Assembly: GCA_963822445.1 (NCBI GenBank)
Contig: CAWGHO010000003.1
Location: 1,024,001 to 1,088,000 of the forward strand
Direction of reading: 5' to 3'
DNA length: 64,000 bases
DNA from: an uncultured Acidobacteriota bacterium
GTDB lineage: Bacteria > Acidobacteriota > Thermoanaerobaculia > Gp7-AA8
Positions within the stretch are counted from its first letter, which is position 1, and every line of letters begins with the position of its first letter. The notes under the pieces are model-generated. The model searched no databases and had not been told where the DNA came from. It saw only the letters and a list, made by a program, of their open reading frames with translations. A program made the translations under genes and the position numbers. This document shows positions 6,052-27,188 of this stretch, piece by piece.

Positions 6052-6061
6052 GTGTCTTCAG

Positions 6062-6169: not shown

Positions 6170-6193
6170 GTCGAAAGGCGCAGGAGAAATCGC

Positions 6194-8050
6194 GTGAGCG
6201 AAGGCGCAATCATCGAAAGACATGAGGACGAAGGCGCGAAAGCCTTCGATCCGCATCTCACCCGGCGCCTGCTCCGTTATCTGAAACCGTATCGCTTCCG
6301 CGCCGGGCTCTCCGTCTTTCTGGTCATTCTCTCGTCGCTGTTCGAGATCGCCGGACCGGCGATCACGGCCATCGCGATCGATCTCTACGTGAAACCGATC
6401 GAAGGATCGACGCCGATCGGCGTGAGCGCGCGAATCGGGGAGTGGCTCGCGGCGAACGGCTTCGTGTTCGACTCGCACACGGGTATCACCATCGCCGCGG
6501 GTCTGTACCTGTTCGCACTCGCCGGTGGATTCGCCGTGCTCTACACGCAGATGGTGCTGATGAATCTGACGGGGCAGTACATCATGTACGACCTCCGCAA
6601 GCAGATCTTCGGTCACCTGCAGAAGCTCGACATTCAGTTCTTCGATCGCAACCCGGTGGGCCGGCTGATGACGCGCGTGACGACGGACGTCGACGCGCTG
6701 AACGATCTCTTCACCGCCGGATTCGTGGCCATCTTCGGCGACATCTTCGTGCTGGTCGGCATCGTCGGCGTGCTGTTCTGGATGAACTGGCGGATGGCGC
6801 TGGTGCTCTTCTCCATCACCCCGTTCATCATCCTGGTGTCGATCTGGTTCCGCCGCGGCGCGCGCAAGACGTATCGGCAGGTCCGCGCGCGCATCGCCGC
6901 GATCAACGCTTTCCTGCAGGAGCACATCTCCGGCATGTCGACGGTCCAGCTCTTCAACCGCGAGGAGAAGGAAGCGGAGAAATTCGAAGGGCTGAACGCC
7001 CGCCACCGCGACGCGAACATCGACTCGATCTTCTACTACGCCGTGTTCTATCCGGCGATCGAGCTGATCGAGACGATCGGCCTAGCGCTCATCGTCTGGT
7101 ACGGCGGCGGGAAGGTCATTCAGGGAACGCTGTCGGTCGGAGCGCTGATCGCCTTCTTCCAGTACTCGCAGCGTTTCTATCAGCCGATCTCCGACCTCTC
7201 CGAAAAGTACAACATCCTCCAGGCGGCCATGGCGGCCAGCGAGCGGATCTTCAAGCTGATCGACACGCCGGTGAAGATTCAGGACGAGGGGACGCTGGAG
7301 GTCGCGCATCTGGAGTCGATCGAGTTCCGCAACGTCTGGTTCGCGTATCACGAGCCCGAATGGGTGCTGAAGGATGTGTCGTTTCGCGTCGAGAACGGCG
7401 AGCGCGTGGCGCTGGTCGGCCATACCGGCGCCGGGAAAACGACGGTGACCTCGCTGCTCCTCCGGTTCTACGAGCCGCAGCGCGGGTCGATCCTCGTGAA
7501 CGGCGTGGAGATCGGCAAGTACCGGATCGAGTCGCTGCGGCGCCTGTTCGCGATCGTGCAGCAGGACTTTTTCCTCTTCACCGGCAACATCGCCGAGAAC
7601 ATCTCCCTCGGCGACCCGGACATCTCCGACGACCGCATCCGCACCGCCGCCGCGCGGGTGCAGGCGGACCGGTTCATCACCCGGCTGCCCGAGGGTTACG
7701 CGGCGCAGGTGCGCGAGCGGGGCGCCGGACTCTCCGTGGGGGAGAAACAGTTGCTTTCCTTCGCGAGAGCGCTCGCCTTCAACCCGCCGGTCCTGATCCT
7801 GGACGAGGCCACCTCGTCGATCGACACGGAGACCGAATTGCTGATCCAGGAGGCCATCCGCACGCTTCTGGAGGGGCGGACGTCGATCGTCATCGCTCAC
7901 CGCCTCTCGACCATCCGCTCGGCGGACACGATTCTCGTCTTCCACCATGGGGAGATCCGGGAGCGGGGGACGCATGACGAACTGATGCAGATCAGCGGGT
8001 TGTACCGGCGGCTGTATGAGATTCAGTACCGGGAGGCGGCGGTGGCGTGA
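6194..8050 (+). CDS. ABC exporter half-transporter, MdlB/YheH-like
   Basis: TM domain plus GHTGAGKTT, LSVGEKQL, LILDEATSSID, IAHRLSTI. Confidence 0.93.
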   Translation: MSEGAIIERHEDEGAKAFDPHLTRRLLRYLKPYRFRAGLSVFLVILSSLFEIAGPAITAIAIDLYVKPIEGSTPIGVSARIGEWLAANGFVFDSHTGITIAAGLYLFALAGGFAVLYTQMVLMNLTGQYIMYDLRKQIFGHLQKLDIQFFDRNPVGRLMTRVTTDVDALNDLFTAGFVAIFGDIFVLVGIVGVLFWMNWRMALVLFSITPFIILVSIWFRRGARKTYRQVRARIAAINAFLQEHISGMSTVQLFNREEKEAEKFEGLNARHRDANIDSIFYYAVFYPAIELIETIGLALIVWYGGGKVIQGTLSVGALIAFFQYSQRFYQPISDLSEKYNILQAAMAASERIFKLIDTPVKIQDEGTLEVAHLESIEFRNVWFAYHEPEWVLKDVSFRVENGERVALVGHTGAGKTTVTSLLLRFYEPQRGSILVNGVEIGKYRIESLRRLFAIVQQDFFLFTGNIAENISLGDPDISDDRIRTAAARVQADRFITRLPEGYAAQVRERGAGLSVGEKQLLSFARALAFNPPVLILDEATSSIDTETELLIQEAIRTLLEGRTSIVIAHRLSTIRSADTILVFHHGEIRERGTHDELMQISGLYRRLYEIQYREAAVA

Positions 8051-8723: not shown

Positions 8724-9236
8724 CTAGCCGTCATGAACGTCGAGTCTCACCGGGTCGCCGGCACGGCACCCTTTGGTCGTGCAGTCGAGAAGCGGCACCC
8801 AGTAAAACGAAGCGCCCGGTCTGCCGCCGGAGGAGATGCGCACCGCTATGCCGTCGGTCGGGTTCCCGGCAACGCCGCGTTCGAGAATCGGGGAGACTTC
8901 AACAAGGACGCCTTCGACGTACGCTCCATTGCGAGGGGCGGCCACGGCGACGATGGAACATGCGACGTTTTTCGGAACATCGATCTCAGCAGGCTCGAAC
9001 CGCGCTCGCAATCCATCCTCGATCCGGCCGACTTCTTCGACTTCGGCTGCGGTGGCCGGGATGGACTTGTAATGAATCCATAGTGCCGGAATCGGCCAGA
9101 TGGGCTGGGTTTTCGAGACGAGAGAAACAGTCCGTGAATTCCGCAGTTCATCGATCGTGCAGATTTGCCTGAGAACGGCCTCCGCAGGCGATTGGGGAGT
9201 GCTCGCACATCCGAAAAGGAGTGCAGACAACCACAC
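8724..9236 (-). CDS. Putative lipoprotein, orphan (possible immunity protein)
   Basis: Lipobox-like LLFGC; lies downstream of the Rhs/Sel1 genes; start uncertain. Confidence 0.55.
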   Translation of the reverse strand: MWLSALLFGCASTPQSPAEAVLRQICTIDELRNSRTVSLVSKTQPIWPIPALWIHYKSIPATAAEVEEVGRIEDGLRARFEPAEIDVPKNVACSIVAVAAPRNGAYVEGVLVEVSPILERGVAGNPTDGIAVRISSGGRPGASFYWVPLLDCTTKGCRAGDPVRLDVHDG

Positions 9237-9283: not shown

Positions 9284-9934
9284 CTACCGCACCCTCTGTT
9301 CATTCAGAATGCCCTGGATGAGCTTACGTTGCTTCTGAAGTTGAGAAGCGAAGTAGGACTTCGGATGGACCGACGCCAGGGCCCGGTCCTGAAGCACGGT
9401 GCATTCTCGGCACTGCTGGATGTCGCGCTCGGCCGCGGCCCTGTCGCACAACCAGAGGATTGCGTCGACATCGCCTCCATGCGCCCCCTTGCGGAACCAG
9501 GATTCGGCGGTTTCCAGGTTTCTGGTGACGCCGGCGCCGTCGCGGTACAGCTTGCCCAGGGTCGACTGGGCGGTCGACGAGCCATGCTCCGCCGAGCGGT
9601 GCAGGTAGCCCATGGCCATTCGTTTTTGTTCGGGGTCGTCACTCCCATTCAACCTGTCGAACATGTGGAACTCGGCTCTCGCATCGCCCGCGTCCGCCGC
9701 CCGCCGCAGCCATGCCACGGCTTTCTCGGGTTGTTCTCCCTCGTCGAAGTAGATGTAGAGGCGCATCATCGCGGGCACGTTGCCATTGGCCGCGGCTCGC
9801 TCCAGCTCCCGGATCTGCTCATCGCCGAGATGCTCACCACAGCAGGTCTTCCTGATCATGAAGTAGGAAGCCGCTGCGATCAGCAAAGCCGCCGCGAAGA
9901 GCAGGCTAATCCCACGGAAGTGGACGTATCTCAT
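9284..9934 (-). CDS. Sel1-repeat protein with N-terminal TM (candidate Rhs immunity protein)
   Basis: KAVAWLRRAADAGDARA, AQSTLGKLYRDGAGVTRNLETAESWFRKGAHGG; overlaps the Rhs 3' end by 29 bp. Confidence 0.85.
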   Translation of the reverse strand: MRYVHFRGISLLFAAALLIAAASYFMIRKTCCGEHLGDEQIRELERAAANGNVPAMMRLYIYFDEGEQPEKAVAWLRRAADAGDARAEFHMFDRLNGSDDPEQKRMAMGYLHRSAEHGSSTAQSTLGKLYRDGAGVTRNLETAESWFRKGAHGGDVDAILWLCDRAAAERDIQQCRECTVLQDRALASVHPKSYFASQLQKQRKLIQGILNEQRVR

Positions 9935-11483
9935 CTTTTTCCTGTTGTCGAACGCCGTTGACGAACGTTACCTGATTCCCACGCGTCGTGAAATCCGGCC
10001 AACCCTCGCGCTTCTGTCCACCGTTTGCCCCCCACGTCCCCCACGTACCCAGATCGACCCCGAAGGTCCAGGTTGGCTGGTCGTTACCAGTCACGGACGT
10101 CTGCATGATCTTCGACAGCTCTTCCGCAATGGAATCGTCACCTCGCGCCGAGTTACAGGAGTTGAGGATGATTGCCGTGCCGGGACGCCATATCTGGGAG
10201 TCTGCCCGGATTTTGTCGGCCAGCTCCTGCGCAGTCATTCCATTCACTTTCGAGCTGGTTCCGTGAGAATTGATGAGGATCGTGTTGTCCGGCACGGAGT
10301 TCAGCCATGCTGCCATTCGATTGCTGTATTCGCGCTTGCCGAAGAACGTCATCTTTTCGCCTTCAGCGCTCTGCTCGGTTTCAGCCGTGGCCGTGGAGCT
10401 CTTCTTTGGCTCAGGCTCCTCTCCGCACGGTTTGTCGCCACGTTTCTCGAAACACGGCGGCCCCTTGTCCGCCAATCCGAACGGGTCAGTCCGGCTCATC
10501 GGATTGTTACGCGTATACGCATAGCGGTTCCAGGATTGCGGATCGCGCTGATCACCAAGCACCGGATCAATGGACAGGAAGCGGCCCAGAGCCGGCGAGT
10601 AATACCGCGCGTGCATGTAGTCGAGGGTGTCGGGTCCGTCGGTCAGCCACTTATCGCGCTCGTGGCCGGTGTACTGCAGGGGAGTGGCCGCCGGTTCCGT
10701 CAACCCGCCGCTGACCTCCGGGCCGAATGCGTAGTAGTCGTGAAACCCGATGATGCGATTGTTCTGATTGGTCACGCGCCGCGGCGTGCCGAGGTGGTCG
10801 AGGTGATAGTGCTCCCTAGCGGCGCCGATCCCGGTGCGACGCACGGACGCGAGCAGGAGCCCGTCGCGATAGACATAATCGCGAGTCCAGGTGAAGGCGC
10901 CCTGTGCATTGCTGGCGAATTCGCGCAGGACTTTCCCGTTCACATCGCGAATGGTCCAGGTCCACGACGAGCCGACCAGGTGGGTCGCAATACGCTCGTC
11001 GTCCGCCGTATAGACGAATTCCTTGGCCATCCCCCCGCCGCTGTCATCGCGGACGGGCATGTTCAGGATGTCGTACGTGTACGTGTGTCCCTGGTACGTA
11101 CGGATGTTGCCGGCGTCGTCATAGTTCAGGTTCTCGACGCGATTCGTCGTGGAATCGATGGACTGGCCGAACTGGCAATCGCTCACTTCCGTGGTTTCGG
11201 GCGCGTGCGTGCAGCCGGTGCGGTTACCGAAGGCGTCGTACGTGTACACGCGCGTGACGCCGTTGACATCGGCCTGCACCAACCGGCCAGCCTTGTCGTA
11301 AACGAACCTGTCCTTGTCGATCTGGCGCACGTTGCCCGAGCCGTCGTAGGTGTACTGAAGGCCGTTGTTCCAGTTCACCTTCTCGGCCGGGGCAGGGCCG
11401 GCAGCAGGAGCGATCCGCGCATCCGCCAGAAGCGGAGCCGCGGCCAGAATGGAAGCGAGAGAGACGATCGTGAGTCGAATCAT
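9906..11483 (-). CDS. Rhs repeat-associated core protein with signal peptide and caspase-like C-terminal domain
   Basis: Signal MIRLTIVSLASILAAAPLLADA; YD repeats; HYHLDHLGTPR, YTGHERD, YMHARYYSPALGRFLSIDP, NRYAYTRNNPMSRTDPFGL; C-terminus has SHG and LNSCNS. Confidence 0.92.
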   Translation of the reverse strand: MIRLTIVSLASILAAAPLLADARIAPAAGPAPAEKVNWNNGLQYTYDGSGNVRQIDKDRFVYDKAGRLVQADVNGVTRVYTYDAFGNRTGCTHAPETTEVSDCQFGQSIDSTTNRVENLNYDDAGNIRTYQGHTYTYDILNMPVRDDSGGGMAKEFVYTADDERIATHLVGSSWTWTIRDVNGKVLREFASNAQGAFTWTRDYVYRDGLLLASVRRTGIGAAREHYHLDHLGTPRRVTNQNNRIIGFHDYYAFGPEVSGGLTEPAATPLQYTGHERDKWLTDGPDTLDYMHARYYSPALGRFLSIDPVLGDQRDPQSWNRYAYTRNNPMSRTDPFGLADKGPPCFEKRGDKPCGEEPEPKKSSTATAETEQSAEGEKMTFFGKREYSNRMAAWLNSVPDNTILINSHGTSSKVNGMTAQELADKIRADSQIWRPGTAIILNSCNSARGDDSIAEELSKIMQTSVTGNDQPTWTFGVDLGTWGTWGANGGQKREGWPDFTTRGNQVTFVNGVRQQEKDEIRPLPWD

Positions 11484-11485
11484 GG

Positions 11486-14400
11486 CTATTTCTTCCCAAC
11501 CACCTGGACGTTGCCCTGGCCCACCCGTTGTTCGACGGCTCGCAGGCCGTCCCAACCGGTGGCGAGCCAGATGCCGCCGTCACGTTTGAGCAGGACCACG
11601 CTGACGGCGTCGTTGACGGAGGGCTCACCGGCGTCGGTCGCGGTCACGACGAGCGGCGCGCCGTCGACGATGACGGCCGGTGCCGTCGAATCCGTGACGT
11701 CGCGCAGCGTGGCCGTGCCGACTATCGTGGCCAGACCACCCGCGGCGGTCCGGCGGATGGACATCGAGACGGGAGCCGCGGTCAGCTCGTACGAACGAGC
11801 GACTTCGCCTTCCGTGCGCGTGAACGCGAACGTGAGCTTGCCTTTCAGGACGGCGTCTTTGTCGTATTGCAGGTTGACGTTGAAGCGCAGCGACGTTGCT
11901 GTCTGTGGTGCGTACGGACCGGCCGCCGAGGCCACGCCGGCGCTGCCACCGCCGTTGAGCGAATCCTCGGTCGGCGTGGCGATGGTCATCGCCAGATCCT
12001 CCGCCGCAGCGTCACGGGTGTAATGGCCGCCGACGCGCGCGCCGACGGTCAGCAATGCCGGGAGCGTCGTGCCGAAGTCGCGCGTGAACGTGCACGTGGC
12101 TACGCCGGTCCGCTCGTCCGTGGCGACGAGCAGCCCGATCGGAGCGGTGCAGAGAACGGTGTCCGTGGAACGATCGACGAAGGTGAGCGTGGCCGTGCGG
12201 ATGTCACCCGCATCGACGTCACCGTTTGCCTCGGCGGTGACGCTGATGTCGCGAACCGTGGCCGCGAGGGTCACGCTCGTCAGTCCGCTGCGCGCGCCGC
12301 CGATGAAGGCCGGCGAGGTGATCAGCACCCGCGCATCCTCGGCAGTCACAGTGAACGTCGAGCCGACGTACGTGATCGCGTAATTGCTCGAGGTCAGGCC
12401 GCCGATGGTGATCGGGTACGTACCCGGCGGGGAGAGGCGCTCGGCCGTGGTCTGGATCGACAGAACGCCGGTGAGCACCGCCGGAGTCTCGCCGAGGACG
12501 AAGCCGGTGAACGTGGCCGTCAGTTGCGGCAGGGGATCGCTGTACTGCTTCGAAGCCGGATTCGCGGCGATGGTCAGCGGCGCGGGAAGAACCGTCAGTG
12601 TCGACGGCGTGATGGTCACGTCGTAGTTGACCAGACGGTTGTTGGGATCGACGAGCGTCGCCGTGATCGGATACGTGCCGGTCACGCTCTCGTGCGTGGC
12701 CGTGGTGGCGTACGACGGCGCGATCGGATCGTTGTTGACGACGCCGGTGAGGACGCCTGTCAGCGCCGGAACCGGCGCGCCGTAGAGCTTCGACTTGGCG
12801 TCGACGACGAGCGACAGCGGCGCGCGGAGCACGTCGAGCGTGACCGACGCCGACGCGGGGAGGTAGTTCGGCGTTTCGGCAACGGCGACGGAGAGAACTT
12901 GTCCCCCGGCGTCGAGCACGGTCCCGGCCGGTGGCGTATACGTCAAAGCGCCGTGCGCCGCGGGTCCGACCACCTGTACGGCGGCGTTGAGCTGCGTCGC
13001 CGACAGCGCCGTTCCGTAGACGATCGGCACGGGTGCTGTCCAGACGATGGTCTGCGGGGCTTTGGCCACGTCGATCGTGGTGGCGATGTCGCCCTCGTTG
13101 TAGTTGCGCGTGTCGGACGGCGTGAAGTGTGCGGACAGCGTGTGACCCGTACCCGCGTCGAGAATCGTTCCCGCGGCGGGCGTGTAGTCGAACGTGCCCG
13201 GCACGTCAGCCGTGGCGTTGAGTTGCGTGGACGAAAGGGCCGTGCCGTAGACGATCTCCGCCGGCTTCGACCAGGCGAGAACGGGATCGGCCTTCTGCAC
13301 TTCGAGCGTCGTGGTGGTGCTGGCGTCGTTGTAGTTGCCCGTGTCGGTGGGCGTGAAACTCGCGGTGAGCGTATGCAGACCGGCTTCGAGCAACGTGCCG
13401 GCCGGCGGCGTGTAGATGAGCGTGCCCGGCACGTTGGCGGTGGCGTTGAGCTGTGTCGCGCCGAGGAGAGCCTTGTAGACGATCGGCGCGGGCTGCGGCC
13501 AGGTCAGGACCGGCGTCGCCTTGAGGACGTCGAGCGTCACCGTCTTGCCGGCGGCGTTGTAGTTCGGTGTTGCCGCGACAGAGACGGAGAGGGCCTGTCC
13601 CGCGCCGGCCTGGAGAACCGTGCCGGCGGCAGGGGAGTACGTCACCGCACCGGCGGGCGAGGGACCGACCACGGTGACCGTGGCAGCGAGCTGCGTCGAT
13701 GACAGCGGCGTGCCGTAGACGATCGGCGCCGGCTGCGGCCAGGTGATGATCTGCTCCGCTTTGGCCACGTCGAGGAAGACCTTCAGCGTGACGGATTCGT
13801 AGTTGCGCACGTCGCCGGGGATGAGCTTCGCTGTCAGCTCGTGACGTCCCGCGTCGAGAACGCTGCCGAGCTTCGGCGTGTAGGCGAACTGGCCGGGGAT
13901 GCTGGTCGTGGCATTGAGCTGCGTCGCGGAGAGCGGCGAGCCGTAGACGATCGGCGCCGGAGCGCTCCACGTCGCCACCGGCGTGGCTTTGGTGATCTCG
14001 ATCGTGACGAACGCCGTCGCCGGCTGGTACCGGCTGTCGGCAGGCGTGAAGACGACAGCGAGTCGCTCCGTGCCGGCGCTCAGGATCGTGCCCGCCGGTG
14101 GCGTGTATGCGAACGTCCCCGGCACATTCGTCGTGGCGTTGAGCTGCGTCGACGACAGCGGCGTGCCGTAGACGATCGGAGCGGGGTTGTTCCAGGTAAC
14201 GAGCGCCGAGGAACGCGCGACCACGACGTCCACGGTGGCCGTGGCGGAGTTGTAGTGATCCGTCCCGGCCGCGCTGACTTTCAACTCGTGGGTGCCTTCA
14301 GGCAGCAGGGTGCCGGCGGGCGGCGTGTAGGTCAGCGCGCCGGCCGGCGCGGGACCGGAGGTGATGACCGCGGCATTGAGCTGGGCCGCGGTGAGAGCAT

Positions 14401-17400
14401 CACCGAATGGCATCGTCGCCGGATCGGACCAGCGGATGATCTGCTCGCCCTTCCCGACATCGATGGTGGTCGTGGCCGTGGAGAGGCTGTGGTTCGGGCT
14501 CTCGGGCTCGAACGTCACCCGCAACGTCTGCGCGTTGCCCACGGCCAGGAGCGTGCCCGGCTCCGGATCGTAGGTGAATTCACCGGCCAGGTTGGAGGTG
14601 GCGTTGAGCTGTGCGCTGCCGAGCGGCGCGCCGTACTTGATCGCTTCCGGGCTGGCCCAGGTCACTGACGAAAGAGCCTTCTGGACGATGAGCAGCGCGT
14701 TCTTCGTGATCGGCGCGAGCGTCGCGTCGGCCGGCGTGAAGGTCACGCCGAGGGTCTGATAGCCGGCATTGAGAATCGTGCCCGCGGGCGGTGTGTAGAC
14801 GAACGTGCCGGGTACATCGGCGGTGGCATTGAGCTGCGCCGCGGAGAGCGGCGTGCCGTAGCCGATGGGTGCCGGGTCGGTCCACGTTACGGTTGCCGGC
14901 GCGGCCGTGACGACCAGGTTTGTAGTCGAGGACGACGCGTTGTGCGTCGTGTCGCCGTCGAAGCGGACCGTGATCGCGTTCGGATACGTTCCTGCCGCGA
15001 TTCCGGCCACGCTCTTCGCGGCCTGGACCAGGCCGGTTGCGTCGGTTCGCAGACGAGCGAACTCGCTGCCATTGAGAGCGAAGACGAGCTCCCTCTGCGC
15101 GAGCGGGGTGCTGCCGGCAGCGAGCGTCGCGGTCACGGCCACGGCCGTACCGACGGTGGGCGGATCGGCGACCACGGCGATGGAGGTCGCCGTACGCGGA
15201 TCGGTGCCGGTGCCGGAGGGGCCGGCGACAGTGCTGCCGCCGCCGCCGATCTGCCAGTTCAGATCCTCGCGTTTGTCGATTGTGACGGCCTTCTCGGGGT
15301 CGGGATCGATATAGAGACCGCTCATGACCCAGACCTTGTGCTCGCCGGTTACGACGTTGCGCCAGACGATGTCCGGTCTGCCCAGCGAGTCGCCGTCGAA
15401 GTTGCCGATCACGGCCGGCATCCAGTTGGGATCGAGCGTCGTGGCCAGCGGCTTGATGGCGGCTTCGAGCCTGCGCAGCGGAGAGCGGCCCATCTTGTCG
15501 CCCTGAGGCGTGATCTGCGGGCCCTGCTTCGCGTCATTCATGACCCAGATCGAGTTCTCACCGGTATTGCGGTTGTGGAAGAAGAGGTCCGGCCTACCGT
15601 CGCCGCTGAAGTCATCGGCGCCGTGGAGACCCCAGCCCTGACCCGAGTTCGCCGGCAGGGCCCAGGTGCCTTCGCGGTCGGCTCCGTCCATGAACCAGAT
15701 CTCGTTTTCACCCGTGGCTTCGTTGTGCCAGACGATGTCGTCGTTGTAGTCGTCGTCGAGATCGGCCACGCCGCCGATCGTCCAGGGGCCGTCTTTGCGC
15801 AGCTCGATCGGTTGCGGAGGCTGGATCGGAGTCGTTCCGCTCATCCTCCAGACCTCGTTCGCGCCGGTCTCGGGATCGCGCCAGACCAGGTCCGGACGCT
15901 CGCTGTCGTCGATGTCGCCCACGCTCTGCAACCGCATGCCGGGCTTGGTGTTCACCGGCAGGCCGAACGTCTGGAGCCGGTTGCCCTTGGCATCGAGCGT
16001 CCAGATTTCATTCGCACCGGTGACCGTGTTGTGCCAGACCAGGTCCGCGACCACGTCGCCGTTGAACGATTTGGAGACCGAGCGCCGCCGCTGGCGCGGC
16101 TGCTGGTAGAAGAAGGCGGCCGCCGTGCGGCTGATCTGTGAGCCGCAGGAGTTGGTGACCTTGGCCCAGTAGAAGGTCATCCCGTGCGGCCGGACGGTGG
16201 CGGTGTCGGTGTTTCCGCCGTCCGCGGCAGAAATGGGGTCGCTCTCGTCGCCGGCTTTGCCGCGGTACCACTGCCAGGTTCCCGACGCGTTCGCCCACAG
16301 CTTGATCTCGCTGGAATGGCCGAAGATGAGATGGTCGCCGGGCGCCTGATTCAGGCCCCAGGGGAAGGAGTTGGTGATCAGCGGCACGCTGCAGCTGCTG
16401 CCGGCGTTGCGGAAGGTGACCGACTTGCTGACCACCCCTTCGCACCACTCGTTGTCGACGGTCGCGACGTAGGTCACGGTTTCGCCGTCGTCGGGATAGC
16501 CTGCGTCGCCGGGCGCGAGCGTCAGCGCGGAACAGTCGTCATTCGGACAATCACGGATCTTCCGGCCGTTCGCGTACCACCTGTAATTGAGATACGTGCC
16601 TTCCACGTGGATGCGCAGGGAGACGTTCTGTCCGTTCCGGACGGTGCCGCCGTCCTCGAGGTCGCTGACCATGGTCGGGCAGACGACCGGCGGCGGCGCT
16701 TCCTGGTTCACCCGGGCCGTCTCGACGCCGCCGTTGATGGAGAGCGTCGCCATGCGCTGCTTGCCGTTGTTGACGTCGGCGCGGAAGGAAACGATGCCGT
16801 TGCCCTTGCCGCTCCAGGAAATGAGATCGAGCCAGTCCTGGTCATCCGTGACGGTCCACTCGCATTCGGCCGGGGCGATGACGTTGACGCTGCCGTCGAA
16901 CGCGAACTTGTACGGGATGAAAACGGGCGAGGTCGAGAAGCGGAACGTGCAGTCGCTGCCTTGCTCGACAGGGATGTTCTTGGTGTTGTAGTCGAAATCG
17001 ACCCAGACGTTGTCGGAGCGCTGGCCGGAGCCGCCGAGCGCCGGCACATCGACGTTGAACTCGCCGTATCCCTGCTTCTTCACGATCGGTCCGACGCGAT
17101 TCGACAGGAACCCCGATGGGTTCATCGGCTCCCACGAGCACCTGTTCGATGTGTTGACGGCGACCGCGAAGATCCCGCCCGCCGCGCCGACATTCATGAA
17201 ACTCGGAACGACGGTGTACGACATGAAGTCGCAGATGATGGTGATGTCCGCGGTATCGGTTTCCGCCGGGAACAGCCCGCCGGCGTAGCTGACGGTCACG
17301 CCGTCCTTGTGGGTAGCCTGAGCGAGGTCGAGCGTGTACTCGAGCACGGCTTCGCCGGTCGGACCGGTCTTCGCCGTACCGATCGGTGTGCCGAGGACGC

Positions 17401-20400
17401 TGAAGGTCAGGTCTTCGTCGACGAGGGGACCGTTGGCCGAGGAGAGCTTCGCGGAGAAGCGCGCCTTCCGGCCGATCGATGCCCACACGTTCGCGGCGAC
17501 GAGCTGCGTATCGCCGTCGCACGACTCGAATTTGAACGGCTTGCCGACCAGCTCCTCGGTCAGACCGCGCTGGCATACACCCATTCCGCCTTCGACCTCA
17601 GGCCCTTCGGCAACGACCGTGTAGGTGTACGTGTTGCCTTTGACGGCGGTGGTGTCGAGGAACTTCGTGCCGGTGATGCAGCTCGATCCGGAGATGTTCA
17701 CGCCGTCGCGGAGGACGCGGTACTTGATCGTGCTCGCGGCGCCGCAAAGCATGGCCGCGGGCCAGGAGACCTCGATGCCGCACGCCGTCGGATTGACCTT
17801 CGCGCGCACGAAGCCGGCGTCGAAGTACGGATCCGTGTTCGTGCAGCCGGTGAACGTGATCTTGCTCGGGCGGGGGATTCCGTTCCGGGCGCTGTAGGTG
17901 TCGGTGGGGTCGTCGAGGGCCTGATGCTGGACCTTTTCGACCATGCCGGAGGGGTGGTAGGTGAGCGTCGCGAATCCTTCGACTTCGGTCAGACGGCCCG
18001 CGGTGCGGTTGTTCGTGACAGAAAACAGGCCGTCGTCGACTGCACAGACCGAATAGGTGCAGCGCGGCATGCGGATCGTGTCCGGCAACAGGTTCTCGTC
18101 GTAAGTGACGCCGTAGTCGAACTCCTGGATGGTGGTCGCGGTGCGGTTGTTCTGCCCGTCGTAGGCCGCGCGCTCGACCAGCGTCTTCCGCGTGTCGACC
18201 TTGCCGGTGGCGCCGTAAATGTAGCTCTCGGTGACCTCGATGTTGCCGTTCCCGGGCGAGGAAAGCCTGTTGTACCGGATCGCTTTCCTGAGCTTTCCAT
18301 CGTCCGCGCCGTCGACTTCGAACACGAATTTCTTGAGCGGACCGCTCGGGCCGGCCACTTCGACGAGACGCTCGGCGGAGTCGAAGGTGTAATCGGTCGT
18401 CACTCCGCCGATGGTGCGTTTCCAGGCGTGACCGCGCGCGTCGTAGTCCTCGTACGTGGTGTATTCGATGCCCGCCTGGTCGGGATCCTGGGTCTCGGGA
18501 TGCGATTCCTTTTCGAGGAAGCCGCGCTCGTCGTACGTGAAGGTACGCGTTTGGGTCACGTCTTCAGAGGCGCTCGCCACCTCAGCGGTGGTCGACACCT
18601 CGATCAGTCTGTCGTCGATGTTGTACGTGTAATCCGTGGTGACGGGACTCCCGCCGGGACCGGACCGTTGGATGACCGATTCGAGGCGGCCTTGTGCGTC
18701 GTAAAACTCGGTGACGACGACGTTCTCGCTTCCGCCGAGCGAGGTAGCCACGCCCTGCGCGCGGGTTTTCCTGCGGATGCCGGAGTATTCGAAAGTCGTC
18801 GTGGTGAGGTCGGGAGCGCGGACGGTTTTCTGGCGGTTGAAGGCGTCGTAGGTGACGTCCGTCGCGTCGCCGGAGACGTCGGAGAATGGATGCTGGGCGA
18901 GCTCGATCGGCTGGGTGACCGAAGCGGCTCGTCCGAGCGCGTCGTAATCGTTCTGCACCACCGCGACCTTGCCGTTCGGCAGGGTCTTGCTGGAGCGTTT
19001 CACGCGCCCGAGGCCGTCGTACTCATAGGTGTTCGTGGCGATGACGCCCGACGGGCCGGTGACCGTTTCGATCACGTGCGCATTCCGGCTGGCGGTGGAG
19101 TTCTCATACTCGTAGCTGGCCGTCGCACCGCCGGCGGGCTTCACCGATTTGAGGCGGACGGGCTTCGCTTCGTAGTCGTATGTGGTGGTGACCCCGGCGG
19201 TGTCTTTTTTCTTGACCACGACGCCGGTGAAGACGTCGACCCAGAGGTCGAGGCTTTTGAACGCGAGCTCCGTACCGTCCTCACGCTTGTAATACTTCGA
19301 CCAGACGGGGAAGCCGCCCGTGTAAAACTCCGTGCTGCTTCCCTCCACCGGCGTCAGGTAATGCGTCTCGACCTGGTACCAGGGCTGGCCGAGGGATGTG
19401 ATGCCGGTGCTGCAGTCGTGCGTCTCCGGCAGCGTGTTCTGCTTGTCACCGCCGAAGTTCTTCACGAACTCGATGTCGCCGAGGGTGGAGGGCTCGTAGA
19501 CAGTGAGCAGGTCGTTCTTGCTCGGTTTGGTCGAATCGACGAGCAGGCGGGTGCGCTCGAGGAAGCCGGTGGTCGCGTTGAAGCAGGCCAACTGGCGGCG
19601 TGTCTCGGTACCCTTCGAGACGTTGCGCTCGGTGAATAGTCCGGTGATCCAGACCTTGCTCTTGATGAACAGGTCGTCGTGCTCCCACTTGTCGTACTTG
19701 GTGATGGTGGTCTTCGATTCGGCGTCCGGGAAGTTGCTGCTCTGGACGACTTTCCCGTAAACGCCCGCGCCGTTGTCATCGAAGTGGTCGGTGGCGATGT
19801 AGCAGTCGCCATCGCAACCCGCGTCGTCCTGTTCGTGAAAGACGGTCTTGGATGACTGGAGCTGCTGCGCTCGATCCGTCCCATAGACGAGCGGATAGGC
19901 CGACCTGTCGACGCTCAGCGGATGGTTCTCGTATTTGGTGTGGGTCGAGCGTTCGAGCTTGCCGTTCGTGCAATCGCCGGCTGTCGTGCAACCCGAGTAG
20001 ACCTCGGTGGTCAGACGCCGTCCGTCGGCATCAGCGGCGTATTCGGCGTCGCCGAGGACCCTCGGTCCGAGAGGTCCCTTTCGAACGGCTGGTGATGACG
20101 TGACGATCGTTCCCGGATACCCGAACGCCATCCGTCCCTCGACCGCCCACGGATCGACGGGCCGCGGCTCATCGCCCGGGAACGGGACTCTGGGAGGACA
20201 CTCGCCGAAGCTCGTGTCGAAGTAGAAATCGAACGAATACGTGTCGAAGTAGTGATCGCTGCGTGTCCGGAACTTTGCACTGCCAACCCCTTCCTCCGGC
20301 GAGAGAACGGAGGTCCGAAACCAGTAATGGGGCAGGGCACTGCTCGCGCCGATCGGCGACACCAGACTGCAACAGTAGTTGGCCAGGGGGTCGGGAAAGG

Positions 20401-21577
20401 TGACGGGTGCGGCGTGACCGCCGTCGTGTACGTAGTCCCATCGGCGCTTGGTCAGCGGGTTTCCATCCGAGATGGTGCGGCTCTTGATCCCGGGGTCGGA
20501 CGTCCAGTCGGCGCAGGTCAGTTTTCCGGGGTGCACATATTCCTGATACTCGTAAACGGTGCTGCCACCGGTCGGCAGCACCATGCTGGCCATCGCGCCG
20601 AGCCGCGCCGGATTGGCGCCGGTCGGATCCGGATCGCTGTAGTAATTGAATTGAAAGCTGGAGCCATCCGGTTGCGCGACACTCGTCAGCATCGGCAGCG
20701 AAACGCGATCCTCTCCCAGCATGAGCCGCACCGACATGGTCGTATACGAGAAGTCGTACAGAGTCTTGGCGCCGCCGAAACCCATGTAGTCGATGTAGTC
20801 GACGATCGACCCGCGATCGACGCCCTCGTTGAGGTCCTCGTCGACTGCGTAGTGAATGACGTGCTCGGTAGCGGTCGAGTCGAGAATCGTCTGTTTCAGG
20901 ACACGGCGGTCGTCGTTCGCTTCGTCGTACTCGTAAGTGAATGTCACCCAGCTCCCGAAGCGATCGGAGATCTTCTTCAGACGATAGGCGTTGCGCTCCC
21001 ACTCGAAGCGGTGCCTTTCTCCTGAGGGAAACTCGACGTCATAGCTGGCTTTGGGACTGGCCGGAACCTTGACCAGCCGCAGTGCGGACGCATCCATCGA
21101 GACCATCACGTCTTCGGTGCCGTAAAAGCCATGCTCGTCGCCTGCGGCGCTCTCGTATACGAAGGCCTCGCGAGTCGATGTCGTCCTGGGAATGATGGTC
21201 GGGTCCGACGGCGGAAGGAGGCGACCGAACGTGAGGCGCCAACCCAGACCGGCGTTCGATCGGCGATTCGGCAACGACTCCGTGCAATACGGAACTCCCC
21301 ACGGCGCTGGAACGCAGCCTTCGACCGCTTCGTGATCCCACACCTTGCCGTTGTAGATGACCTGCATCTGGTACGACAGCGTCTTGCTGACCTGCTTCCG
21401 TGGCCCGATCGGCACGGTGAGCATCAGGTTTCCGTTGAACAGATTGACGGAGTCGATCTCCGAGTAGTCGTAGAGCTTTCCGGGCTGGAATCCGAGCTCC
21501 AGGTCCGGCCCTTTCTGTGCGACGGCCGGAACGGCCAGAGCGAGGATCAGTGCGGCGAGGGCGATCCGCTTTTTCAC
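11486..21577 (-). CDS. Giant secreted protein (3363 aa): YD/Rhs shell + FN3/Ig/BACON + FG-GAP + MBG-like repeats
   Basis: Signal peptide; SVNLFNGNL, GLGWRL and many YD repeats to about aa 1240; BACON-like CEWTVTDDQDWL; five DxxxDxxxDLVW blades; nine W..PAPI.YG..LS..QLNA repeats; two MBG_2-like domains. Confidence 0.93.
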   Translation of the reverse strand: MKKRIALAALILALAVPAVAQKGPDLELGFQPGKLYDYSEIDSVNLFNGNLMLTVPIGPRKQVSKTLSYQMQVIYNGKVWDHEAVEGCVPAPWGVPYCTESLPNRRSNAGLGWRLTFGRLLPPSDPTIIPRTTSTREAFVYESAAGDEHGFYGTEDVMVSMDASALRLVKVPASPKASYDVEFPSGERHRFEWERNAYRLKKISDRFGSWVTFTYEYDEANDDRRVLKQTILDSTATEHVIHYAVDEDLNEGVDRGSIVDYIDYMGFGGAKTLYDFSYTTMSVRLMLGEDRVSLPMLTSVAQPDGSSFQFNYYSDPDPTGANPARLGAMASMVLPTGGSTVYEYQEYVHPGKLTCADWTSDPGIKSRTISDGNPLTKRRWDYVHDGGHAAPVTFPDPLANYCCSLVSPIGASSALPHYWFRTSVLSPEEGVGSAKFRTRSDHYFDTYSFDFYFDTSFGECPPRVPFPGDEPRPVDPWAVEGRMAFGYPGTIVTSSPAVRKGPLGPRVLGDAEYAADADGRRLTTEVYSGCTTAGDCTNGKLERSTHTKYENHPLSVDRSAYPLVYGTDRAQQLQSSKTVFHEQDDAGCDGDCYIATDHFDDNGAGVYGKVVQSSNFPDAESKTTITKYDKWEHDDLFIKSKVWITGLFTERNVSKGTETRRQLACFNATTGFLERTRLLVDSTKPSKNDLLTVYEPSTLGDIEFVKNFGGDKQNTLPETHDCSTGITSLGQPWYQVETHYLTPVEGSSTEFYTGGFPVWSKYYKREDGTELAFKSLDLWVDVFTGVVVKKKDTAGVTTTYDYEAKPVRLKSVKPAGGATASYEYENSTASRNAHVIETVTGPSGVIATNTYEYDGLGRVKRSSKTLPNGKVAVVQNDYDALGRAASVTQPIELAQHPFSDVSGDATDVTYDAFNRQKTVRAPDLTTTTFEYSGIRRKTRAQGVATSLGGSENVVVTEFYDAQGRLESVIQRSGPGGSPVTTDYTYNIDDRLIEVSTTAEVASASEDVTQTRTFTYDERGFLEKESHPETQDPDQAGIEYTTYEDYDARGHAWKRTIGGVTTDYTFDSAERLVEVAGPSGPLKKFVFEVDGADDGKLRKAIRYNRLSSPGNGNIEVTESYIYGATGKVDTRKTLVERAAYDGQNNRTATTIQEFDYGVTYDENLLPDTIRMPRCTYSVCAVDDGLFSVTNNRTAGRLTEVEGFATLTYHPSGMVEKVQHQALDDPTDTYSARNGIPRPSKITFTGCTNTDPYFDAGFVRAKVNPTACGIEVSWPAAMLCGAASTIKYRVLRDGVNISGSSCITGTKFLDTTAVKGNTYTYTVVAEGPEVEGGMGVCQRGLTEELVGKPFKFESCDGDTQLVAANVWASIGRKARFSAKLSSANGPLVDEDLTFSVLGTPIGTAKTGPTGEAVLEYTLDLAQATHKDGVTVSYAGGLFPAETDTADITIICDFMSYTVVPSFMNVGAAGGIFAVAVNTSNRCSWEPMNPSGFLSNRVGPIVKKQGYGEFNVDVPALGGSGQRSDNVWVDFDYNTKNIPVEQGSDCTFRFSTSPVFIPYKFAFDGSVNVIAPAECEWTVTDDQDWLDLISWSGKGNGIVSFRADVNNGKQRMATLSINGGVETARVNQEAPPPVVCPTMVSDLEDGGTVRNGQNVSLRIHVEGTYLNYRWYANGRKIRDCPNDDCSALTLAPGDAGYPDDGETVTYVATVDNEWCEGVVSKSVTFRNAGSSCSVPLITNSFPWGLNQAPGDHLIFGHSSEIKLWANASGTWQWYRGKAGDESDPISAADGGNTDTATVRPHGMTFYWAKVTNSCGSQISRTAAAFFYQQPRQRRRSVSKSFNGDVVADLVWHNTVTGANEIWTLDAKGNRLQTFGLPVNTKPGMRLQSVGDIDDSERPDLVWRDPETGANEVWRMSGTTPIQPPQPIELRKDGPWTIGGVADLDDDYNDDIVWHNEATGENEIWFMDGADREGTWALPANSGQGWGLHGADDFSGDGRPDLFFHNRNTGENSIWVMNDAKQGPQITPQGDKMGRSPLRRLEAAIKPLATTLDPNWMPAVIGNFDGDSLGRPDIVWRNVVTGEHKVWVMSGLYIDPDPEKAVTIDKREDLNWQIGGGGSTVAGPSGTGTDPRTATSIAVVADPPTVGTAVAVTATLAAGSTPLAQRELVFALNGSEFARLRTDATGLVQAAKSVAGIAAGTYPNAITVRFDGDTTHNASSSTTNLVVTAAPATVTWTDPAPIGYGTPLSAAQLNATADVPGTFVYTPPAGTILNAGYQTLGVTFTPADATLAPITKNALLIVQKALSSVTWASPEAIKYGAPLGSAQLNATSNLAGEFTYDPEPGTLLAVGNAQTLRVTFEPESPNHSLSTATTTIDVGKGEQIIRWSDPATMPFGDALTAAQLNAAVITSGPAPAGALTYTPPAGTLLPEGTHELKVSAAGTDHYNSATATVDVVVARSSALVTWNNPAPIVYGTPLSSTQLNATTNVPGTFAYTPPAGTILSAGTERLAVVFTPADSRYQPATAFVTIEITKATPVATWSAPAPIVYGSPLSATQLNATTSIPGQFAYTPKLGSVLDAGRHELTAKLIPGDVRNYESVTLKVFLDVAKAEQIITWPQPAPIVYGTPLSSTQLAATVTVVGPSPAGAVTYSPAAGTVLQAGAGQALSVSVAATPNYNAAGKTVTLDVLKATPVLTWPQPAPIVYKALLGATQLNATANVPGTLIYTPPAGTLLEAGLHTLTASFTPTDTGNYNDASTTTTLEVQKADPVLAWSKPAEIVYGTALSSTQLNATADVPGTFDYTPAAGTILDAGTGHTLSAHFTPSDTRNYNEGDIATTIDVAKAPQTIVWTAPVPIVYGTALSATQLNAAVQVVGPAAHGALTYTPPAGTVLDAGGQVLSVAVAETPNYLPASASVTLDVLRAPLSLVVDAKSKLYGAPVPALTGVLTGVVNNDPIAPSYATTATHESVTGTYPITATLVDPNNRLVNYDVTITPSTLTVLPAPLTIAANPASKQYSDPLPQLTATFTGFVLGETPAVLTGVLSIQTTAERLSPPGTYPITIGGLTSSNYAITYVGSTFTVTAEDARVLITSPAFIGGARSGLTSVTLAATVRDISVTAEANGDVDAGDIRTATLTFVDRSTDTVLCTAPIGLLVATDERTGVATCTFTRDFGTTLPALLTVGARVGGHYTRDAAAEDLAMTIATPTEDSLNGGGSAGVASAAGPYAPQTATSLRFNVNLQYDKDAVLKGKLTFAFTRTEGEVARSYELTAAPVSMSIRRTAAGGLATIVGTATLRDVTDSTAPAVIVDGAPLVVTATDAGEPSVNDAVSVVLLKRDGGIWLATGWDGLRAVEQRVGQGNVQVVGKK
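12830..14900 (-). repeat. Nine tandem 75-85 aa MBG-like coding repeats in (A-A-B)x3 order
   Basis: Recurring gagctgcgtcg/ccgtagacgatcggc motifs; every third unit begins QIIxW or QTIVW and has a GPxxxGA insertion; boundaries approximate. Confidence 0.85.
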
Positions 21578-22215
21578 TTGCCCACCTCGCCCAGGAAGAC
21601 GTCGAGATGTCCGAGATCGACGGCTACGACCACGTCGCCGGCCTTGAGATGCTTCGGCGCCTTTTCCTTCCCTTCCTCGAGCGGCTTGGCGTCCTCGAAG
21701 GCCATCGAAAGGCGGCCGTTGGCCTCCTTGTCGCGATCGGCGCTTCCTCCTTCACGTCCCCGAAGAGTCCACGCTCCTTTTTCCGGACGAACGACGAGGA
21801 GCATCAGGCGGAGGATCCGCTTCTCCAGCGTCGCGATCTGGTCGTCGGCGTCCTTGCGGAGCATTGGTGCGAGCGGCGCGACGTAAAGCGGAAAGCCCTC
21901 CCGCGCGCCCGTGGCCACGGCTCCGGTCTTGTAGTCGACCGCGATCCATACCGAGACGTACGGCACCGGGCCGGGCAAAGAGACCACGCCGTCGCCGTCG
22001 TCGTCGCGGAGAAGCCGCGGCCGCGAGTCGTTCACGCCCTGCCCGTTGCGCACGTATTTGGCGTACGAGAAGAGCACAACGTCACCACCGGGTGTGAGGT
22101 TGGAGACCCGCACGCTGTCTTCGCCGACTTGCAGCGCCAGAGGTGCGCTCTGGGCGAGTGCCGCAGGAGCGAGTGCAATGAGGACGAGGAGGGAGAAGAA
22201 GGACAGAGTCCGCAT
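21574..22215 (-). CDS. Secreted hypothetical protein coupled to the giant Rhs gene
   Basis: Signal peptide (...APAALAQ); DDDGDG acidic loop; GTGA overlap with the giant gene start. Confidence 0.85.
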   Translation of the reverse strand: MRTLSFFSLLVLIALAPAALAQSAPLALQVGEDSVRVSNLTPGGDVVLFSYAKYVRNGQGVNDSRPRLLRDDDGDGVVSLPGPVPYVSVWIAVDYKTGAVATGAREGFPLYVAPLAPMLRKDADDQIATLEKRILRLMLLVVRPEKGAWTLRGREGGSADRDKEANGRLSMAFEDAKPLEEGKEKAPKHLKAGDVVVAVDLGHLDVFLGEVGK

Positions 22216-22495
22216 AGATCGATTCTCGAATCGTGAAGAGATGGCAATTGCGGAGCTGAGCGCGCGCCGGAACGGCGGGCGAGGATCAGCGACACGAACG
22301 GCCGCGCTCTGATTTAGTTGTTGCCTGCTGACGGAAGGACCGGCGCGGAGGAAATCATGCGTGACTGTTAGCGGTCAAGAATTATTACCGGACCGGCCGG
22401 TCAGTATTGGCAGGGCTGTCGAGCGTCTTCTTCCTTGTGTGCATCGTGTGTCCGAGGTAGCCTCGGCGCGGGACTTCCGCTGGGTCGTCAACACC

Positions 22496-24013
22496 ATGCT
22501 TTCCAAAGTATGGAGCGCGGCCACCCTCGGAATTGAAGCAGTACGGATCGTCATCGAAGTCGACGCGCGGGTTGCCCAGCAGCCCGGATTCACGCTGGTC
22601 GGCTTACCGGACCCGGTCGTGCGCGAGTCGTACTCGCGCGTGCGTTCGGCGCTCGCCAATTGCGGGCTGTATGTCCCGTGTCGGTTCATCACCGTCAACC
22701 TCTCGCCGGCCGACGTGCGCAAGGAGGGTTCTGGTTTCGACCTGCCCATCGCCATCGGCATCCTGCACGCGCTGGAAGTGCTGCGGGACGAGCACGTCGC
22801 TGACCGCGTGTTCGTCGGCGAGCTGTCGCTCGATGGAACGCTGACTCCCGTTCGCGGAACGCTGTCGATTTCCGCGGCGCTCGCAGGCGATCGGGGAACG
22901 CGCGAGTTGATCGTGCCCGCGCCGAATGCGAATGAAGCGGCGGCCGTGCAGAAGATGTGCGTCATCGGTGCGCCGCATCTGCTAGCGCTTCTGCAACATT
23001 TGCGCGGTGAGGTCGCGATCGAGCCGGCGATCTCGACATCGAATGGCGGACCGGCGGTGGAAGGGGCGGACTTCTCTGAAGTTCGCGGCCAGGCTCAGGC
23101 CAAGCGCGCGCTGGAAGTCGCGGCGGCCGGCGGGCACAACGTGATGATGATCGGCCCGCCGGGCTCGGGAAAGACGATGCTGGCCAAGCGGCTCTCGACG
23201 ATTCTGCCGCGGCTCACGCTGGAGGAAGCGATCGTCACGACGAAGATCCACTCCGTTGCCGGCGTGCTTCCGCGCGAGAGCGGGCTGCTCGTCCGGCGAC
23301 CGTTTCGCGCGCCGCATCACACGATCTCCACGGCAGGACTGGCGGGAGGAGGCACGCCGGTGCGACCGGGCGAGGTGAGTCTCGCGCATCACGGCGTGTT
23401 GTTCCTCGACGAGTTGCCGGAGTTTCGCCGCGAGACGCTCGAAGTGATGCGCCAGCCAATGGAGGACGGCGCGGTAACGATTGCCCGCGCCGCGCGAACG
23501 GTGACGTTCCCGGCGCGCTTCACGCTCGCCGGCGCGTTGAATCCATGCCCGTGTGGATTTTTCAACGACGGCCGCCGCGAATGCATCTGTTCGCAACAGC
23601 AGATCTCGCGTTACCTGGCGAAGATCTCCGGCCCGCTCCTCGATCGGATCGATCTGCAGGTGGAAGTCGCGGCGTTGACGAGCGAAGAGATCGCGTCCGT
23701 CGAGCCGGGCGAGCCATCCGCGGCGATCCGCGAGCGCGTCGAAGCCGCGCGACAGATTCAGCGCGCGCGCTTCCGCCGCTGCAACGCGGACATGACTTCG
23801 CGCGATCTGCGCAAGTACTGCGAGCTCGATCCACGATCGAGAAAGTTGCTGATTTCCGCTATCGATCGGCTGGGCCTTTCGGCCCGCGCGTACGACCGGA
23901 TCCTGAAAGTGTCGCGAACAATTGCTGATCTTTCCGGGGTGGAGCGGATCGAGTCCGGCCATGTGGCTGAGGCCGTTCAGTACCGGGCGCTGGATCGCGC
24001 GTACTTTCGTTAG
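22496..24013 (+). CDS. comM: YifB/ComM family Mg-chelatase-like AAA+ ATPase
   Basis: VGLPD..VRES, NLSPADVRKEGSGFDLPIA, GPPGSGKT, FRAPHHTIS, GVLFLDELPEF, NPCPCG, ISGPLLDRID. Confidence 0.95.
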   Translation: MLSKVWSAATLGIEAVRIVIEVDARVAQQPGFTLVGLPDPVVRESYSRVRSALANCGLYVPCRFITVNLSPADVRKEGSGFDLPIAIGILHALEVLRDEHVADRVFVGELSLDGTLTPVRGTLSISAALAGDRGTRELIVPAPNANEAAAVQKMCVIGAPHLLALLQHLRGEVAIEPAISTSNGGPAVEGADFSEVRGQAQAKRALEVAAAGGHNVMMIGPPGSGKTMLAKRLSTILPRLTLEEAIVTTKIHSVAGVLPRESGLLVRRPFRAPHHTISTAGLAGGGTPVRPGEVSLAHHGVLFLDELPEFRRETLEVMRQPMEDGAVTIARAARTVTFPARFTLAGALNPCPCGFFNDGRRECICSQQQISRYLAKISGPLLDRIDLQVEVAALTSEEIASVEPGEPSAAIRERVEAARQIQRARFRRCNADMTSRDLRKYCELDPRSRKLLISAIDRLGLSARAYDRILKVSRTIADLSGVERIESGHVAEAVQYRALDRAYFR

Positions 24014-27177: not shown

Positions 27178-27188
27178 GGCGGGTCTCC

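Follow-up and report, generated by a model that had tools for sequence, protein, structure and literature searches.

Can an Rhs cocoon be closed by two proteins that leave the cytoplasm separately? Known Rhs cocoons are either single chains, as in type VI secretion system (T6SS) effectors, WapA, and teneurins, or a TcB/TcC pair assembled in the cytoplasm. The question is raised by a locus of an uncultured bacterium of the Thermoanaerobaculia (Acidobacteriota), contained in a 64,000-nucleotide (nt) stretch of DNA (GenBank assembly GCA_963822445.1, contig CAWGHO010000003.1, positions 1,024,001 to 1,088,000), hereafter the window, to whose own numbering all positions refer. There, a 3363-amino-acid (aa) YD-repeat protein, P0001 (here the giant), is followed on the same strand by a small gene that resumes the repeats and carries the Rhs core and a toxin domain. 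A sequence-only reading of the window had suggested that the two products co-assemble outside the cytoplasm. Our best reading of the data is likewise a two-chain cocoon, formed after Sec export, which would be analogous to TcB/TcC but split elsewhere.

The break point between shell and plug

According to the open reading frame (ORF) list, four minus-strand genes are tightly packed head to tail: P0003, the giant, the small Rhs gene, and a Sel1-repeat gene. The giant ends in a TAG codon and the ATG of the small gene, at 11483, lies 2 nt further on (...AAA TAG CC ATG), opening a frame of 525 aa; this layout, including the 2-nt gap, is as the sequence-only reading had it. The parts of the two proteins are as follows.

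11486-21577, minus strand: giant P0001, 3363 aa, GTG start
21515..21577, minus strand: signal-peptide-like N-terminus of the giant, aa 1-21, ...AVPAVA/QKG (translation and hydropathy rule)
17828..21514, minus strand: shell part of the giant, aa 22-1250, an outer YD/Rhs barrel wall without core
11489..17827, minus strand: extension (stalk) of the giant, aa 1251-3363, i.e., 2113 aa (Pfam, repeat motifs)
9906-11555, minus strand: small Rhs ORF, in its longest form 549 aa from a TTG at 11555
11421..11483, minus strand: signal-peptide-like N-terminus of the small protein, aa 1-21, MIRLTIVSLASILAAAPLLA/DA (hydropathy rule)
10473..11378, minus strand: shell-completing YD repeats and Rhs core, aa 36-337 (TIGR03696, RHS_repeat, RHS)
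9909..10472, minus strand: C-terminal toxin domain, aa 338-525, 188 aa, family unassigned

The shell part of the giant matches RHS_repeat (Pfam PF05593), and a PF25023 (TEN_YD-shell) match is precomputed on an identical database protein. Residues 22-1250 align over their whole length with single-chain Rhs relatives, covering the first ~1240 aa of these, and this homology stops at aa 1248-1250, in keeping with the earlier claim that the YD repeats end at about aa 1240. In a sequence search of the PDB, a profile of aa 600-1260 matched solved Rhs cocoons and teneurins; a profile of aa 22-620 found no relative there, the shell as a single sequence found nothing, and the single sequence had no relative among the genome contigs either. 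Residues 1-600 gave no Pfam match of any kind, hence no NHL or FN-plug family. The giant had also been said to lack an Rhs core and a DPxG cleavage motif, and indeed NCBIfam and a motif scan found neither TIGR03696 nor PxxxxDPxG in it, the only trace being a stray DPTGA at aa 317.

Of the two proteins, only the small one has the Rhs-associated core and the motif PxxxxDPxG[LWF]. Its YD repeats begin at aa ~38 and together with the core span ~300 aa; TIGR03696 scores 65.9 bits (cut-off, 32.5) over aa 250-337 in the ATG-started numbering, ending in the cleavage motif PMSRTDPFGL (aa 328-337, 10473-10502). The claim that this gene resumes the YD repeats and supplies both core and PxxxxDPxGL thus holds. 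The core residues are invariant in 60 fused and split sequences.

The position of the cut is given by relatives in which shell and core are fused in one chain. The giant shell aligns to residues 1242, 1213, 1243, and 1244 of four such chains (L025, L026, L035, and L054, respectively), and the YD part of the small protein starts at 1245, 1217, 1247, and 1246 of the same chains, i.e., the two aligned parts are only 2-4 residues apart. Alignment of the concatenate to single-chain homologues, a check proposed by the sequence-only reading, is therefore seamless. In the PDB search, the YD and core profile of the small protein aligned with the C-terminal ~300 residues of shells of known structure from Rhs, TcC, and teneurin proteins (882-1151 of the 1152 residues of the Rhs shell 8h8a, 994-1289 of the Rhs shell 7q97, 1859-2143 of the bacterial teneurin-like 9pt5, 315-663 of TccC2, and 333-689 of YenC2). 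Conserved C-terminal Rhs repeats spiral into the cocoon and seal it, as described by Günther et al. (PMC8765631). Judged by these alignments, in which shell and plug lie back to back on the single-chain relatives, the giant and the small protein together correspond to a single Rhs protein, divided at the place where the outer wall of the barrel gives way to the C-terminal plug that spirals inward. The cut lies ~315 residues deeper than the TcB/TcC boundary, which makes it an independent fission.

One chain among the relatives has extra sequence at this very place. L053:1-5481 (plus strand; same sequence as L108) carries ~279 aa inserted exactly at the shell/plug junction, in which an IPT-like domain and three SLH-like repeats can be recognized by eye. 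In the orphan module downstream, the final SLH-like repeat is retained and a signal peptide is lacking. The site therefore tolerates large insertions, and we regard L053 as a revealing intermediate.

In the giant, the chain continues beyond the junction with a series of domains:

aa 1264-1329: RGI_lyase/FN3-like domain (Pfam/NCBIfam)
within the extension: Big_3_5 (Pfam)
within the extension: BACON (weak Pfam match, below cut-off)
aa 1888-2000: FG-GAP repeats, with FG-GAP_3 at 1888-1950 (Pfam)
aa ~2184-2920: about nine Ig-like repeats of ~85 aa, HYDIN/VesB-like (Pfam and motif positions)
aa 2923-2995 and 3001-3076: two MBG_2 domains (Pfam)
past the MBG_2 domains: C-terminal 287 aa, no domain assigned

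The ~2100 aa of FN3, Ig, BACON, FG-GAP, and MBG domains announced by the earlier reading can thus be recognized in the 2113-aa extension, BACON being the weak, below-cut-off member of the set. The Ig-like repeats share the motif ...PAPIVYGTPLS..QLNAT..., and window positions 13095-13564, within their run, hold a 228-nt unit twice at 74% identity. The 2113-aa stalk is shared with two relatives, L027 (51% identity over 2163 columns) and L079, and a protein search returned 20 giants, 2001-3641 aa long, whose N-terminal part is the same shell. The stalk may be an adhesin or receptor-binding arm.

Recurrence of the split and its payload genes

To see how the arrangement is distributed, 61 genomes (the window's own plus relatives) were searched, of which 43 had a match to the first 1260 aa of the giant and 50 to the YD and core part of the small protein. 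These tallies include the unpublished genomes G002, G025, and G042, from which none of the analyzed loci L024-L078 derive. In all, 55 loci were taken from the 61 genomes and 78 from named public metagenome-assembled genomes, almost all of whose records are labelled Thermoanaerobaculia or Acidobacteriota. Every core-less shell gene with at least 1.5 kb of sequence downstream (40/40) was followed directly, on the same strand, by a small gene for YD repeats, core, and toxin, so that the survey of related genomes proposed by the sequence-only reading comes out in its favor; seven further core-less shell genes lay too close to contig ends to be judged. The shell gene of the split loci always runs on for 279-2474 aa beyond the junction, with Ig, FN3, or PKD-type domains.

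This recurrence bears on the possibility that the two genes are an artefact, either of a chimeric assembly or of a frameshift within what is really one ORF. The window is drawn from an assembly, which would leave room for such an error. The C-terminal 2113 aa of the giant are not Rhs-like, however, so a frameshift could not rejoin the genes, and the same layout is seen in 40 loci of independent assemblies, including the close relatives with the same stalk, L027 and L079. On these two grounds we reject an artefact, the probability of which we put close to nil. A programmed frameshift joining the two genes is likewise ruled out by the non-Rhs C-terminus of the giant and by a spacing that varies between loci.

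The small genes of the split loci also have starts of their own, with hydrophobic, export-like N-termini. As a rule for a signal peptide we required a K or R followed by a 10-residue window whose Kyte-Doolittle hydropathy averages 1.8 or more. Distinct full-length YD and core modules were tallied over all loci by their context:

fused to a shell: 24 modules, one with the 279-aa junction insert; rule not applicable
stand-alone, directly after a core-less shell gene: 40 modules, 40 pass the rule
stand-alone, after another small gene: 13 modules, 12 pass
stand-alone, after a fused Rhs: 2 modules, 0 pass; both resemble classical orphans
stand-alone, after some other ORF: 14 modules, 13 pass
stand-alone, after a large ORF without match: 2 modules, 1 passes
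stand-alone, at a locus edge: 17 modules, 13 pass

As controls, none of 24 fused-junction windows passed, and of 276 windows placed at random within shell ORFs, 16 did. The signal peptide ascribed to the core gene of the window by the sequence-only reading is thus recognized by the hydropathy rule, there and in the 40/40 related split loci.

These starts also speak to a second possibility, namely, that the locus is a decaying classical Rhs, with the giant a former Rhs minus its core and the small gene a silent orphan cassette for recombination. It is well established that orphan cassettes for core and toxin can lie downstream of a full Rhs gene (PMC3482391), and the clade has some too, since small genes without a signal peptide follow the fused Rhs of L053 and L054. 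At the split locus, in contrast, there is no main core for a cassette to displace; own starts with signal-peptide-like N-termini occur in 40/40 small genes, against 0/2 true orphans and 0/24 fused junctions; and the architecture is conserved, with intact frames, in many species. The orphan-cassette reading is rejected on these three counts and appears highly improbable to us.

The shell segment (43 rows) and the plug segment (60 rows) gave congruent trees, with L024 and L027 as the nearest kin of the window in both. The split label requires four changes on the shell tree and five on the plug tree, at least two changes being forced by well-supported branches on each.

A different layout was observed in L067 (G026:C4:86000-105999, minus strand). 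Two ORFs there, one of 990 and one of 1129 aa, have a shell match limited to the first ~380 aa, and each is followed by an ~800-aa ORF with the YD and core part. The start of one of these fails the signal-peptide rule and that of the other is marginal (hydropathy, 1.92), neither being convincing.

Related loci hold two or three plug-toxin genes that have the same docking part and different toxins. Between neighboring small genes (14 pairs), identity is 65-95% in the docking part, as against 14-22% in the toxin part. A single shell gene of this clade and a single small gene are present in the genome of the window itself. Over the set, 63 toxin domains fell into 53 BLAST clusters, in line with the variable C-terminus attributed to the core gene, and the arrays of small genes similarly uphold the notion of an exchangeable payload gene. 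Since these arrays share the docking part and differ in toxin, they would encode alternative payloads for one shell, and it is likely that a single shell can carry interchangeable toxins.

Many small Rhs genes were seen to have an extra domain of 100-125 aa that follows the signal peptide and precedes the YD repeats (L046:5582-5947, plus strand; also L034, L043, L052, and L060), with the motif ...PGTGKY(I/V)... and no Pfam match. A second type of linker, ...PQAVKALEHL..., is present at other loci.

The toxin domain of the window gave no Pfam match above the cut-off, DUF4347 reaching E 0.1, and none of 10 toxin domains from other split loci had a Pfam match. Relatives of it numbered 48 (E<=1e-3) among 1.84 billion representatives; 13 of 37 that were aligned contain RHS_repeat and one contains DUF4347 (8e-4), and two (P0028, P0029) are small Rhs proteins with their own signal peptide. 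An atlas provided leads only, DUF4347 and Peptidase_C80 (0.85 and 0.80). The toxin profile reached PDB chains through its Rhs-core columns only, with no solved relative of the toxin part among them, and an AlphaFold2 model of the mature small protein made without an alignment was discarded (pLDDT, 33.9). The aligned relatives have an invariant Cys (C103, ...LNSCNS...) and a near-invariant His (H67, ...INSHG...), which suggests, at the level of sequence, a Cys/His hydrolase of as yet unassigned family.

Predicted assembly and the locus around it

For co-folding, aa 600-1260 of the giant (43-row alignment) and aa 22-340 of the small protein (60-row alignment) were used with self-built alignments. 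The interface score ipSAE was 0.91, 0.90, and 0.91 in three runs, and 0.00 in the best of three controls. The mark applied is reached by 58/80 solved complexes and 2/110 mismatched pairs, a calibration that holds only approximately with self-built alignments. Between runs, 84% or more of the contacts are shared, and the pLDDT of the partners is at least 86. In the model, the contacts of lowest error join aa 1236-1246 of the giant with aa 38-51 of the small protein, as a predicted continuation of strands across the seam. Co-folding had been proposed by the earlier reading as a check, and the predicted interface, in which the last shell strand of the giant pairs with the first strand of the small protein, answers it in favor of pairing.

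From these data we infer the following scheme. The giant would be exported by Sec, and its first ~1230 mature residues would fold into the outer YD barrel; at the place of the usual inward turn, its chain would leave the barrel and run on for 2113 aa through a series of beta-sandwich, beta-propeller, and MBG domains. The small protein, encoded by the next cistron, would be exported through its own signal peptide and would supply the ~300-aa plug, the aspartyl autoprotease core (PxxxxDPxGL), and the 188-aa toxin. Once outside, its first strand would dock onto the last shell strand of the giant, the plug would close the barrel with the toxin encapsulated inside, and the core would cleave after DPFGL. 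A membrane- or periplasm-facing Sel1 protein would protect the producer, the stalk may engage a target, and the particle would have to cross the outer membrane to reach it. One shell could be loaded with alternative payloads, much as TcB with different TcC subunits. That the two chains really assemble into one cocoon after Sec export seems to us probable.

Several points weigh against this scheme. Export, binding, cleavage, and toxicity are all predictions from sequence and a structural model. The rule for signal peptides is a home-made hydropathy test in which the best of several candidate starts was taken. Since Rhs, Tc, and teneurin cocoons have been solved, the co-folding result may reflect likeness rather than binding; the co-fold also starts at aa 600 of the giant, and closure of the other end of the barrel lies outside it. 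The split loci obtained from the genome set come from one genus, fused forms being found in other genera of the class as well, so that the counts include non-independent kin and overstate the independent support. The genome has Omp85-family genes, and the cell is therefore diderm; no route across its outer membrane was identified. Finally, four loci (L086, L087, L099, and L116) have signal-peptide-bearing small genes, at ~7.5-9.5 kb of the locus and in unrelated neighborhoods, with no shell gene within ~7.5 kb upstream. This fits "orphan-locus" payloads and also small proteins that act alone.

The last point leads to the alternative that the two proteins act independently, the giant being a teneurin-like surface adhesin with an empty or open barrel and the small proteins autonomous secreted mini-Rhs toxins. 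It would account for small genes that have a signal peptide and no nearby shell gene (13/14 of those after some other ORF pass the rule), and teneurins show that a YD shell can serve adhesion without toxin delivery (PMC8765631, PMC13018210). However, the ~300 aa of YD repeats and core make up the inward plug only and cannot alone enclose a 188-aa toxin, and a small gene lies immediately downstream of 40/40 core-less shells. The break point is seamless with a confident predicted interface, and the docking part is conserved between neighboring small genes while the toxins diverge. We consider independent action unlikely, and retain assembly of the two chains into one cocoon as the preferred explanation.

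The other two genes of the putative operon are given here.

21574..22215, minus strand: P0003, 213 aa, first gene of the operon (ORF and translation)
9284..9934, minus strand: Sel1-repeat gene (Pfam Sel1, E 5.9e-12), overlapping the end of the small gene by 29 nt

By the simple hydropathy rule, all four products (P0003, giant, small protein, and Sel1 protein) have a hydrophobic export-like N-terminus. That of the Sel1 protein could be an anchor or a signal, and its gene position makes it a putative immunity protein. The ORF after the toxin gene had an export-like N-terminus in 35/81 small genes and 10/21 fused ones, a crude pick that includes mis-picked ORFs and does not discriminate between small and fused loci. 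P0025, a 170-aa ORF (8724-9236, minus strand), lies directly downstream of the Sel1 gene and has a lipoprotein-like N-terminus (...LLFGC...) and no Pfam match; it could be a second immunity-type gene or else unrelated.

P0003, whose stop overlaps the GTG start of the giant by 4 nt, lies inside the range of the sequence-only reading (9906-22215) yet was passed over by it; its upstream position is conserved, a homologue being found directly upstream in 25/36 split and 13/17 fused relatives. As it accompanies both forms, P0003 is a partner of the whole Sec-Rhs clade and not of the split form specifically. It had no Pfam or NCBIfam match. An AlphaFold2 model (27-row alignment; pLDDT, 93.7) has two tandem Ig/FN3-like beta-sandwich domains, for which structure searches returned only generic Ig/FN3 matches (best Z, 7.8; Foldseek TM, 0.2-0.3), and no link to the teneurin FN-plug was seen. 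It is speculation on our part that P0003 is a trans-acting plug like the teneurin FN-plug. In a more extended scheme, three Sec-exported parts, i.e., the giant as shell and stalk, P0003 acting in trans to plug or gate its N-terminal mouth, and an interchangeable plug-toxin, would join in the periplasm or on the cell surface for a delivery independent of T6SS and TcA, with the payload chosen by protein assembly rather than recombination and the target selected by the stalk. This is tentative and, as a whole, somewhat improbable. The same genome has, at G000:C2:2409176-2409685 (plus strand) and far from any shell gene of the clade, a distantly related paralogue of P0003 with 27% identity in 171 aa.

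The flanks of the locus are unrelated: an ABC exporter pair (4318-8050, plus strand), a ComM/Mg-chelatase-like gene (22361-24013, plus strand), and a GDSL lipase (25753-27324, minus strand). A search for sigma-70-like promoters at the locus found none and terminator-like sites were rarer than in shuffles, an uninformative outcome. TssC, TssF, and VgrG were not found in the window's own genome (94.7% complete), which extends genome-wide the earlier statement that T6SS genes are lacking; a lone Hcp-family (PF05638) gene was observed on another contig (G000:C1:1505557-1505967, minus strand; 121 bits). A search with PF03538 (VRP1/TcA) gave no match in this genome, but likewise none in any control genome.

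If true, the proposed assembly would mean that an Rhs cocoon can close around its cargo after membrane translocation, that the same shell can take up different toxins, whether their genes stand in tandem or at other places, and that the seam of the barrel allows very large external domains to leave it. The locus would then offer a natural, testable system for the entry of toxins into Rhs shells and possibly a modular scaffold for cargo loading. It also points to an uncharacterized antagonism system in abundant, uncultured soil Acidobacteriota (Thermoanaerobaculia).

Comparison with known Rhs, teneurin-like, and Tc systems

Open-access full texts, supplements excluded, contained no occurrence of "split Rhs" or "bipartite Rhs," and no paper joining Thermoanaerobaculia with Rhs was found in the open-access literature. 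The system differs from T6SS Rhs effectors in that the giant begins with a signal-peptide-like sequence rather than a PAAR- or VgrG-linked region, in a genome in which TssC, TssF, and VgrG were not detected.

With other Sec-exported YD-shell toxins, the bacterial teneurin-like proteins and WapA, it shares an N-terminal Sec-type signal, a shell of YD repeats that would enclose the toxin, and added adhesion-type domains. PMC13018210 describes bacterial teneurin-like proteins as single chains with N-terminal adhesion domains plus FN-plug and NHL domains, and as toxins that have no dedicated injection machine and are delivered by an unknown route; the phrase "two genes" does not occur in that text. 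The extra domains are here, in contrast, at the C-terminus of the shell subunit, a placement that forces the split.

The Tc BC cocoon (TcB plus TcC, e.g., TcdB2-TccC3 and YenB-YenC) is likewise an Rhs cocoon of two polypeptides, the present one being predicted only. In both, the second chain brings the aspartyl-protease core and a hypervariable toxin, and alternative second chains exist for a first chain; PMC11067744 reports that YenTc packages three C components from distinct loci. The split point differs, since the small protein corresponds only to the last half of the shell part of TcC (315-663 in TccC2 and 333-689 in YenC2), and in Pfam the shell part of the window is without SpvB, the TcdB-mid domain, or a beta-propeller gate. 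Both chains of the window carry Sec-type signals, and the first has a long C-terminal stalk. To our knowledge, Tc subunits have no signal peptides. Tc release is reported to occur by lysis dependent on a type 10 secretion system (PMC10847048).

There is also a likeness to classical single-chain Rhs proteins, which have the same YD shell, TIGR03696 core with PxxxxDPxGL, hypervariable C-terminal toxin, and extra toxin modules downstream, with an immunity gene after the toxin, the place held here by the Sel1 gene in a putative role. Their orphan modules have no export signal, and recombination is the presumed way in which they come into use (PMC3482391), whereas each module here is a complete protein with an export-type N-terminus. 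Where classical Rhs proteins run on as one chain, the frame of the giant closes with a stop codon and, after a gap of 2 nt, the small gene opens with its own start codon and a signal-peptide-like segment. The system is an Rhs polymorphic toxin in all respects but the single chain.

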